Source: Patescibacteria group bacterium
GTDB lineage: Bacteria > Patescibacteriota > Doudnabacteria > UBA920
DNA length: 64,000 bases
Reading direction: 5' to 3'
Assembly (NCBI GenBank): GCA_013387205.1
Contig: WARV01000008.1
Location: 136-64,135, forward strand
Shown: positions 1,438-49,120 of the stretch, piece by piece
Layout of the letters: each line of letters starts with the position of its first letter
Numbering within the stretch: position 1 is the first letter of the stretch
The notes under the pieces: generated by a model
The model's input: only the letters and a program-made list of their open reading frames with translations
What the model was told of the DNA's origin: nothing
Databases searched by the model: none
Made by a program: the position numbers and the translations under genes

Positions 1438-1527
1438 ATATTTTTGCCGTATGCCTATCTAAAAAGCTTTGAAGATAGGTTTAACCGATAAACAGTCGGC
1501 ACGGCGAAGAGTTAAGAATTTACATAC

Positions 1528-1599: not shown

Positions 1600-1975
1600 A
1601 GCGAATTTCGCGAAATATACAAAAGGGAGGAAGTTCTATTAAGAAAACCATTTAAAAAAATACACTGCGTCGGGAAATCGCATCTGAGCGATAAGCCGTT
1701 TGCTTACGGCGTAAGCAGGATGGGGTTGGAGTAACGGTCTCCTGATGGTTGATTTTTTAGGTAGGCGAGCCAAAAGATATTAGCCATTCAGGGTCCTTGT
1801 GTCTGCCCGAAGGCCAGACAGGGAAACCTTTCAATCGTTGCATGACAATATCGCTAAGGCGCAAGCCTTACCCATCCAGTAATGCATTAATGGGCAAAAG
1901 GGAGTAGTGGCGAGCGAAACCTTAAAGCTTTAGGCGCCCCCTGTTTGATACTGGCAGACAGGGGTTTTTCTTTTG
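1600..1975 (+). ncRNA. unclassified structured RNA candidate ending in an intrinsic terminator
   Basis: ORF-free about 375 nt. Candidate promoter TTGCAA(1565)-17-TATGCT(1588). Local hairpins gcttacGGCgtaagc (1702-1716) and taaggcGCAAgcctta (GNRA loop, 1853-1868). Long-range complementarity caggatggg (1717) with cccatccag (1869). Terminator cccctgt...acaggggTTTTTCTTTT at 1936-1975. Confidence 0.35.
1936..1975 (+). terminator. rho-independent terminator (GC stem + T-run)
   Basis: ccctgtttgatactggcagacaggg followed by tttttctttt. Confidence 0.6.
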
Positions 1976-2221: not shown

Positions 2222-2806
2222 ATGGCTAATCTGAAAAAAATAGTTTTGGACTTAGAGACGCAAAAAGAATTCGCGGAGGTCGGGGGGCGGGGAAAAAACC
2301 ATTTGCTCAAAGTTTCCGTGTGCTGCATTTACGATTATTCGACAGGGAAGTATTCATCTTACGAAGAAGCGGAATTGCCAAAGCTGGCGCCGATCTTGCA
2401 AACCGCTGACCAGATAATAGGCTATAATATAAAAGATTTTGACTTCCAGGTTATCCAGCCATATTTGAATTTTGACATAAGCCAGGTGCCTTATTTGGAC
2501 TTGCTGGAAGAAATTGAAAAAACTTTGGGACACAGGATAAAACTAGAAGATGTCGCCCAGGCGACTTTAGGGACAGGCAAGTCAGGTTCTGGAAAAGAAG
2601 CATTGCTCTATTTTAAAAACGGGCGCATGGATTTGCTGAAAAAATATTGTCTGGATGACGTGAGAATAACCAAACAAGTTTACGAATACGGGCTTAAAAA
2701 CCAAAAATTGCTGTTCCGCGACTTCTTTAAAATGAAAGAAGTGACGGTAAAAATATCAGAGCCTGTTCCCAGGACCGGAGTAAAACATCAAGCAGCTTTA
2801 TTTTAG
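2222..2806 (+). CDS. DEDD-family 3'-5' exonuclease-like protein (RNase H-like fold)
   Basis: Motifs VLDLETQ (exo I), GYNIKDFDF (exo II), YCLDDVRITKQVY (exo III, YxxxD), consistent with DnaQ/DEDDy exonucleases. Confidence 0.6.
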   Translation: MANLKKIVLDLETQKEFAEVGGRGKNHLLKVSVCCIYDYSTGKYSSYEEAELPKLAPILQTADQIIGYNIKDFDFQVIQPYLNFDISQVPYLDLLEEIEKTLGHRIKLEDVAQATLGTGKSGSGKEALLYFKNGRMDLLKKYCLDDVRITKQVYEYGLKNQKLLFRDFFKMKEVTVKISEPVPRTGVKHQAALF

Positions 2807-48786: not shown

Positions 48787-49120
48787 AGTGCTTTAAGCAA
48801 ACTCATAAGCCGAATTCTGTTTCTAAATAATCATCTGTCTAGCCCTTAAATTGCTCTAAGGGTCAAGCAGCCTACCTAACTTGGCTTTGCACTCAAGTAA
48901 GAGTTTAGCCGTTTCACCTTGGCATTGCTACCAAGACGATCCAATTGCTTGGATCTCCTAGCCTTTCGGCATCGGACGTTTCTGTTCGCATCTCGCACCT
49001 TGCGGTGGACGGGAATTACCCGCTACCCTTTTTGATAACTCTATAGAGGCTATCAAACAAGTGTTCGGACTTTCCTACCCAATTTTTACATTGGATTGAT
49101 TATTCGATTTGCTTAAAGCT
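48787..49120 (-). ncRNA. rnpB: RNase P RNA (bacterial type)
   Basis: Minus-strand sequence contains CR-I GGUAGGAAAGUCCGAACAC (rc of about 49061-49079), GGUGCGAGAUGCGAACAG region, and CR-IV/V AACAGAAUUCGGCUUAUGAG (rc of about 48800-48820). P1 helix gcuuuaagcaaa (49119-49108) pairs with uuugcuuaaagc near the 3' end. Terminator follows at 48757-48786. Promoter TTGACA-17-TAGAAT on minus at 49154-49126. Confidence 0.75.

Follow-up and report, generated by a model that had tools for sequence, protein, structure and literature searches.

A candidate lineage-specific non-coding RNA between aspS and an exonuclease gene in a Patescibacteria genome

The element considered here lies at positions 1600–1975 of a 64,000-nucleotide (nt) stretch of DNA from a Patescibacteria group bacterium; we call the whole stretch the window and number all positions within it. 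An initial annotation, made from the letters of the window, had described the element as an unclassified structured RNA with a promoter, GNRA hairpins, distant complementarity and an intrinsic terminator. The window comes from contig C23; the genome, 1.30 Mb in 24 contigs, is 98% complete as judged by marker genes. The element sits inside a 784-nt spacer without genes. On one side of this spacer is aspS, which starts at 1437 on the minus strand and encodes a protein with the Pfam domains tRNA-synt_2, GAD and an anticodon-binding oligonucleotide-binding (OB) fold; on the other side is a gene for an RNase H-like exonuclease of 194 amino acids (2222–2806, plus strand; PF13482), with lgt next downstream. 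We tentatively interpret the element as a non-coding RNA restricted to this lineage.

The candidate unit at 1600–1975

Upstream of the element, the plus strand carries the promoter-like sequence TTGCAA-17-TATGCT at 1564–1592 (TTGCAA at 1564–1569, TATGCT at 1587–1592), arranged back to back with that of aspS, TTGGCA-17-TAAAAT, which a promoter scan placed on the minus strand at 1556–1528. The letters of the promoter-like sequence are as the initial annotation gave them, although they match the consensus at 8 of 12 positions only, and the site is unlisted by the promoter scan because 8/12 falls below its threshold. Weight is given to it because the consensus promoters of several relatives share its position; TTGACA-17-TAGTAT or TTGACA-17-TAGAAT is found there in L016/L045, L022, L024, L033, L048, L131 and L147. 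At the other end, the strong terminator that had been noted is confirmed by a terminator scan, which found an intrinsic terminator at 1938–1975 composed of a hairpin (1938–1964) with a ten-pair stem, six of the pairs being G–C, and a 7-nt loop, followed by the T-rich tail UUUUUCUUUU. It is the only terminator found within 1300–2400, and many relatives have terminator-like hairpins at the same position in the spacer.

The claim that the region is free of open reading frames (ORFs) also holds. No ORF of 60 or more amino acids was found in it, none of the ORFs of 35–44 amino acids on both strands has a Shine–Dalgarno (SD) sequence followed by ATG, GTG or TTG, and no SD-led ORF beginning with ATG, GTG or TTG was found anywhere in the spacer.

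The presumed 5′ end of the RNA is occupied by a hairpin, GCGA-AUU-UCGC (1601–1611), that is evident in the sequence and in the minimum free energy (MFE) fold. An SD-like box, AAAAGGGAGGAAG, follows at 1621–1633, some 20–30 nt from this end. The box is complementary to the 3′ end of the genome's own 16S ribosomal RNA (rRNA), GGAUCACCUCCUUUCU, with AAAAGGGAGG at 1621–1630 pairing with the 16S terminus ...CACCUCCUUUCU. No ATG, GTG or TTG start codon lies 4–12 nt past the box; there is only an AUU at 1638, within an A+T-rich tract (1634–1662) that reads AUU AAG AAA ACC AUU UAA from this point (1638–1655). A second SD-like copy, AAAAGGGAG, is present at 1896–1904.

The central part of the element, the core (1700–1880), contains two hairpins that the initial annotation had regarded as GNRA hairpins. 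This description fits UAAGGC-GCAA-GCCUUA at 1855–1870, which has a GNRA tetraloop, but not GCUUAC-GGC-GUAAGC at 1702–1716, which has a triloop. The distant complementarity is likewise present, as a closing helix of seven contiguous Watson–Crick pairs (1718–1724 with 1871–1877), but amounts to no more than chance would give, since by our own arithmetic about four long-range complementarities of 7 bp are expected in 375 nt. The predicted fold of the core adds a long hairpin at about 1740–1793 and a further hairpin at 1801–1819; the CUGAUGG that had been pointed out is found at 1742–1748.

Fold stability was scored as a z value against shuffled sequences for three regions on both strands, and in all three the plus strand outfolds the minus strand. 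For the core, the MFE is −70.2 kcal/mol on the plus strand (z = −4.03, none of 200 shuffles as good) and −57.6 kcal/mol on the minus strand (z = −2.82, 1 of 200). The corresponding z values for 1660–1935 are −2.63 (2 of 200 shuffles as good) and −1.24 (22 of 200), and those for 1600–1975 are −2.86 (1 of 100) and −1.87 (4 of 100). A background of 80 random 181-nt windows from the same genome gave a mean z of −0.78 with a standard deviation of 1.70. As 4 of these 80 reach the z of the core, the fold is unusual at about the 5% level and not exceptional, and predicted stability by itself falls short of proving a structured RNA.

That 5% of random windows fold equally well is what might be expected of a functionless spacer, in which the promoter-like site would have arisen by chance and the terminator would only shield the exonuclease promoter. 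The 8/12 promoter and the lack of visible conservation (see below) point the same way, as does the observation that promoter-like and terminator-like sites are about equally frequent in shuffles of the region. We nevertheless consider such a spacer improbable: for a genome of 1.3 Mb, 784 nt is a long stretch to be without a gene, the SD-like box is perfect, the folding is strand-biased and the position of the promoter is common to relatives.

The element remains unclassified, as first described, because Rfam matched nothing in it; the models searched include those of T-boxes, riboswitches, group I and II introns, ribozymes and large non-coding RNAs. A search of the whole window with Rfam 15 at the gathering score returned only the bacterial class A RNase P RNA at 48790–49115 on the minus strand (108.3 bits, compared with a gathering score of 100), and a search of 1400–2250 with E values up to 10 returned only microRNA models on a palindrome at 2044–2157 and a match with an E value of 7.8 at 1505–1562. 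The earlier statement that the element is neither RNase P RNA nor transfer-messenger RNA (tmRNA) is borne out by this location of RNase P RNA and by the tmRNA of the genome, which lies on another contig (C22:24773–25169, 113 bits); ARAGORN was blank for tmRNA in the window and found no tRNA genes anywhere in its 64 kb. Two other identities were tried and rejected. A divergent signal recognition particle (SRP) RNA was set aside for want of a match to domain IV, with RF00169 and RF01854 blank in the genome and no Ffh, and a divergent 6S RNA was set aside as RF00013 is blank in both the genome and the region and the predicted fold is multi-branched; 6S RNA forms a rod with a bubble at its centre and is about 185 nt long.

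Relatives of the locus and its variable slot

Throughout the family, aspS adjoins the exonuclease gene divergently, and as this adjacency is kept, spacers could be collected by synteny. They comprise 29 genome loci, 69 metagenome loci, which were found by means of the exonuclease protein (best identity 84%), and 40 more genome loci. The queries for blastn, nhmmer and tblastx spanned 1540–2000 of the window, or 1538–2197 for the 29 syntenic loci. Neither blastn nor nhmmer found a counterpart of the element in the 29 syntenic loci, the 69 metagenome loci or the 40 further spacers, and tblastx detected no likeness in 98 related loci. The only matches in the 29 syntenic loci involved the terminator, which weakly resembles that of L016 (E = 0.004), and the palindrome downstream of it. 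BLAST searches with 1600–1975 gave no homologue in 40 relatives, 94 other genomes of the family and 145 other genomes of the order, and there was no match to the element in phage and plasmid collections. The collections searched contain no other genome of the same genus.

A covariance model was built from a single sequence, the core with its centroid structure (181 positions, 62 pairs). Among 95 family genomes it recovered only the window itself (none of the 94 others), and with filters off its best match in 25 loci of the slot between aspS and the exonuclease gene (72,513 bases) had an E value of 0.75. Rfam models at the gathering score matched none of the 29 syntenic loci, those applied to 18 further loci with E values up to 0.05 gave only T-boxes, on the aspS strand, and no riboswitch family matched either the region or the slot loci. 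Helix-preserving covariation, the mark of a conserved structured RNA, was thus not found in these loci, there being no homologue to align, and hence no selection on structure can be demonstrated.

The stretch is present in three DNA runs of one soil study; the contigs from these runs match the window exactly over the parts that they cover and therefore supply no variants for covariation. No RNA runs carrying the region are listed among the sequencing runs. A literature search on structured RNAs of the candidate phyla radiation brought up nothing relevant among titles and abstracts.

The nearest approach to a relative of the element is the spacer of L047. A MAFFT alignment of the window with L047 and L041 is plausible in the 5′ 90 nt only, and a motif search with the shared 5′ piece returned L047 alone. 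The 5′ 90 nt score 42 against L047, compared with 21.0 ± 4.1 for shuffled sequences (none of 1000 as good). However, L137 equals this with a score of 44 through an A+T-rich match, which leaves the likeness to L047 uncertain; as A+T-rich matches score this high, we do not regard homology with L047 as proven.

The 86 distinct complete aspS–exonuclease spacers range from 77 to 1409 nt in length, with 17 of at most 250 nt, 11 of 251–500 nt and 58 of more than 500 nt. The edges of the slot are kept. At the near edge these are the aspS promoter box and, in several loci, a TTGACA..TAGTAT promoter on the plus strand; at the far edge a terminator hairpin is found, the T tail of which runs into the exonuclease promoter (TTTTGTCTTTTT ... 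TATACT), so that in the relatives a TTGTCT..TATACT promoter lies directly past the terminator. The interior is not kept and consists of unrelated small ORFs or GC-rich RNAs. The SD-led mini-ORFs include MKGRLWWS in L014 and L020, with synonymous differences only, MxxLNSxN in L024, L033 and L022, and MK..VIW(I/V) in L060, L163 and L151. Small hydrophobic peptides of membrane type, M(A/S)DFR(K/R), are encoded in L046, L064 and L160, Asn-rich ORFs of 32 amino acids are found in L011 and L019, and longer ORFs occur in L052, L054, L085 and L013. At least nine loci have GC-rich, ORF-free stretches with a recurring arrangement of a GC hairpin followed by GCAAUCAU. Neither this motif nor the families of small ORFs matched Rfam. 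The layout seen in the window, in which GGAGG precedes a 30-nt tract that is at least 80% A+T and lacks a start codon, with a folded RNA after it, is found in 4 of the 86 spacers (that of the window, L041, L047 and L156).

The presence of SD-led small ORFs (MKGRLWWS, MxxLNSxN, MK..VIW(I/V), M(A/S)DFR(K/R) and the Asn-rich type) at this place in relatives, together with a strong SD-like box lacking a start codon in the window, suggests another explanation, namely that the slot once held a gene for a short peptide of which the SD sequence survives while the start codon and frame have been lost, leaving no function of its own. Such a decayed cassette would not be expected to retain a perfect SD sequence, the layout without a start codon recurs in three other divergent loci, and the core outfolds shuffled sequences with a strand bias; moreover, there is no likeness at the protein level to the ORF of any relative. 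We regard decay as a doubtful account of the element.

The similarity of the mini-ORFs in relatives to leader peptides raises a further alternative, in which the element would serve exonuclease–lgt as a long 5′ leader or attenuator. Transcription from 1600 would then stop at 1975 or read through in response to a sensed signal. The element is oriented like the genes downstream of it, and its terminator precedes the exonuclease gene. However, the promoter scan found a promoter of the exonuclease gene itself at 2158–2186 on the plus strand, downstream of the terminator, which matches the consensus at 11 of 12 positions and has an equivalent in relatives. The distance from the terminator to the exonuclease start codon is 247 nt and includes a 114-nt palindrome, 17 of the 86 spacers (those of up to 250 nt) have no room for a leader, and no riboswitch family was matched. 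An attenuator controlled by a leader peptide would further need a canonical start, which the element lacks, and sits poorly with a downstream promoter placed after the terminator. We therefore consider attenuation very unlikely.

Interpretation of the element

Our favoured reading is that 1600–1975 gives rise to a non-coding RNA of about 375 nt that is specific to this lineage and transcribed independently, its transcription and ends being predicted from the signals described above; we would give this reading a probability of roughly 0.4. The product is probably a small folded RNA exclusive to this organism, given that the corresponding place in relatives is occupied by small genes or RNAs unrelated to it. 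Of the structured RNA originally proposed, the anatomy of a stand-alone unit stands, with its promoter-like site, absence of genes, hairpins and terminator, while the structure is predicted from one sequence and finds no support in relatives.

In the mechanism that we envisage, a weak promoter of the σ70 type would start the RNA near 1600, and the 5′ hairpin and the SD-like box without a start codon would keep a 30S subunit bound close to the 5′ end. The bound subunit may shield the RNA from the 5′-to-3′ exonuclease RNase J, in the manner of the stabilizing SD (STAB-SD) element of Bacillus, and the multi-hairpin core together with the terminator hairpin would provide a stable body and a 3′ end. 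The terminator could also insulate the downstream exonuclease promoter. In the mRNA of Bacillus thuringiensis cry3A, a 30S subunit on the STAB-SD box is described as blocking RNase J1 (PMC4113751), and ribosomes at a strong SD sequence are described as protecting the B. subtilis hbs mRNA from RNase J1 likewise (PMC5737220). Several features of a STAB-SD element are found here, namely an SD-like box near the presumed 5′ end that is complementary to 16S rRNA, no start codon at the proper spacing and an RNase J encoded in the genome (TIGR00649, 585.7 bits compared with a cut-off of 400; C3:40371–42017). The cry3A box differs in lying in the leader of a protein-coding mRNA, whereas here there is no gene before the terminator, the 5′ end is a predicted one and the stabilizing effect is putative. 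By analogy, then, the SD-like box may act as a stabilizer, and the RNA may have some function in trans.

Several of the results weigh against this reading. The promoter matches 8 of 12 consensus positions, 4 of the 80 background windows reach the z of the core, no homologue was found that could reveal selection on the structure, no RNA runs carrying the region are listed, the likeness to L047 is uncertain, and small ORFs fill the slot in many relatives, so that the copy in the window could be a decayed one.

Compared with known types of RNA, the element resembles a stand-alone small RNA (sRNA) in its promoter-like site, lack of an ORF, stable hairpins, intrinsic terminator and intergenic position, but about 375 nt is long for a base-pairing sRNA, conservation and an Rfam family are lacking, and no target or chaperone is known here. 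Small-ORF cassettes and type I toxin-like mRNAs offer another comparison, as the relatives have SD-led ORFs of 8–33 amino acids, some of them hydrophobic, in folded and terminated transcripts; the copy in the window differs in having neither a start codon nor a hydrophobic frame, and no antisense partner was seen. Taken alone, an unconserved sRNA candidate from a soil bacterium that is uncultured and has a small genome matters little. The slot, on the other hand, turns over fast between kept promoters and a kept terminator, and is a good place to study the birth and loss of small genes and sRNAs in reduced genomes.

A different role for the element is suggested by a sequence near its 3′ end. 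At 1898–1923, the plus strand reads AAGG(G)-AGUAGUGGCGAGCGAAA-CCUU, the flanks of which are able to form four pairs, and 17 nt within it (1903–1919), AGTAGTGGCGAGCGAAA, recur unchanged in the 23S rRNA of this genome at C12:23088–23104. The same 17 nt match one place in most genomes of the family in BLAST searches; this place is a universally conserved loop of 23S domain I near Escherichia coli position 200. A partial second copy, AGGCGAGCCAAAA, identical at 10 of 12 positions, lies in the apical loop of the long hairpin (1763–1775, plus strand), which is weak evidence with a chance estimate of about 0.1. One could thus imagine an rRNA-mimic decoy whose hairpins display the conserved loop AGUAGUGGCGAGCGAAA, once exactly and once in part, and which titrates or senses a ribosomal protein or an assembly factor.

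The identity is complete over 17 nt, and this is the only 17-mer common to the 23S gene and the rest of the 1.3-Mb genome; by our own estimate, the chance of its falling in a pre-chosen stretch of 375 nt is about 3 in 10,000. Its flanks are unlike those in 23S rRNA and yet can pair (AAGG/CCUU compared with UUCCG/CGGAA), the upstream 100 nt are colinear with 23S rRNA with a score of 28 compared with 19.1 ± 3.6 for shuffled sequences (12 of 500 as good), and the 10/12 second copy is displayed in a hairpin loop. However, the places that the 23S gene has in common with the remainder of the genome number 148, 37, 12, 5 and 1 as k rises from 13 to 17, a series that follows the decay expected by chance, and one shared 17-mer somewhere in the genome is about the chance expectation. 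The upstream likeness is significant for one of three sizes (100 nt, but not 60 or 150 nt), and there is none downstream. The MFE fold leaves the AAGG/CCUU helix unused, no result points to a partner protein, and the 23S-like motif is absent from the spacers of all relatives, for which reason it was also rejected as a common feature of their elements. A decoy of this kind appears decidedly improbable.

The leaders of ribosomal protein operons (L1, L10, L20) carry rRNA-mimic sites. Like them, the element copies a conserved rRNA loop exactly over a short stretch, which is placed on a hairpin with a stem unlike that of the rRNA, but it differs in having no ribosomal protein gene nearby (the neighbours being aspS, the exonuclease gene and lgt), in not being conserved and in matching no Rfam leader. 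If the copy of the 23S loop were functional, it would be a free-standing rRNA mimic outside any mRNA leader.

The aspS leader, the SRP pathway and the downstream palindrome

The minus strand of the same spacer contains, in the aspS leader at 1477–1507, a hairpin resembling an anticodon arm; its stem is 4 bp long and its 7-nt loop reads YYGUYUA. In the window the inner hairpin is CCGA-CUGUUUA-UCGG (1485–1499, minus strand), and the loop pattern places GUC (Asp) or GUU (Asn) at the position of the anticodon. A hairpin of this type is present in 49 of the 86 distinct spacers, or 50 by a slightly looser pattern, in loci among L011–L163. Two-sided, compensatory changes are seen at all four stem pairs (19 cells); the rows were picked for pairing, so that the percentage of paired positions is by construction. 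In loci with short leaders, the 3′ strand of the outer stem carries SD-like letters just before the AUG. The hairpin matches no Rfam family.

A T-box (RF00230) is found instead of the hairpin in 7 of the 18 loci scanned (L133, L134, L137, L138, L145, L166 and L169). The T-box matches are full-length, with E values of 3e-9 to 5e-3 and scores of 29.7–53.5 bits, below the gathering score of 93. As some loci have a T-box and others the anticodon-like hairpin, two leaders that sense tRNA appear to alternate within one family. By analogy with thrS, the hairpin looks like a candidate operator for autoregulation by AspRS. A precedent for such control is described for a yeast synthetase (PMC6542539); no case for a bacterial AspRS appeared among the search results that included it.

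The SRP pathway as a whole also appears to be absent, with Ffh, FtsY and SRP RNA seemingly missing throughout the order. Besides the lack of RF00169 and RF01854 matches in the genome, neither the M domain of Ffh (PF02978) nor the SRP54 GTPase domain (PF00448) was matched there, and the GTPase signature motifs DTAGR and TKxDGxAKGG occur in no open frame; controls for these searches of the genome were matched in 13–14 of 14 model genomes. RF00169 matched in 1 of 41 genomes of the order, on a contig of 1.6 kb, and PF00448 gave nothing beyond P-loop fragments, none above 23.4 bits, in 31 genomes of the order. A search of titles and abstracts on SRP loss in Patescibacteria yielded nothing relevant. 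The mimic in the aspS leader and the apparent absence of the SRP pathway are likely to be of more interest than the sRNA candidate itself.

The 114-nt palindrome at 2044–2157, between the terminator and the exonuclease promoter, carries repeats of CTACAGAT. This 8-mer occurs in clusters of two to five at about ten places in the genome, pieces of the palindrome of 27–37 nt recur with 92–96% likeness on contigs C22, C24, C3, C10 and C12, and the motif is also found upstream of the exonuclease gene in relatives. The palindrome either serves a regulon as an operator array or is a small dispersed repeat. In nine of the relatives (L026, L030, L043, L054, L133, L137, L151, L153 and L160), though not in the window, one or two short copies of approximately the first 12 codons of the exonuclease gene precede its real start, reading MLKKIVLDLETH/Q and then P(A/S)FAKA(T/S)AD.. 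with an internal hairpin. These copies may represent a leader ORF or a duplicated start.

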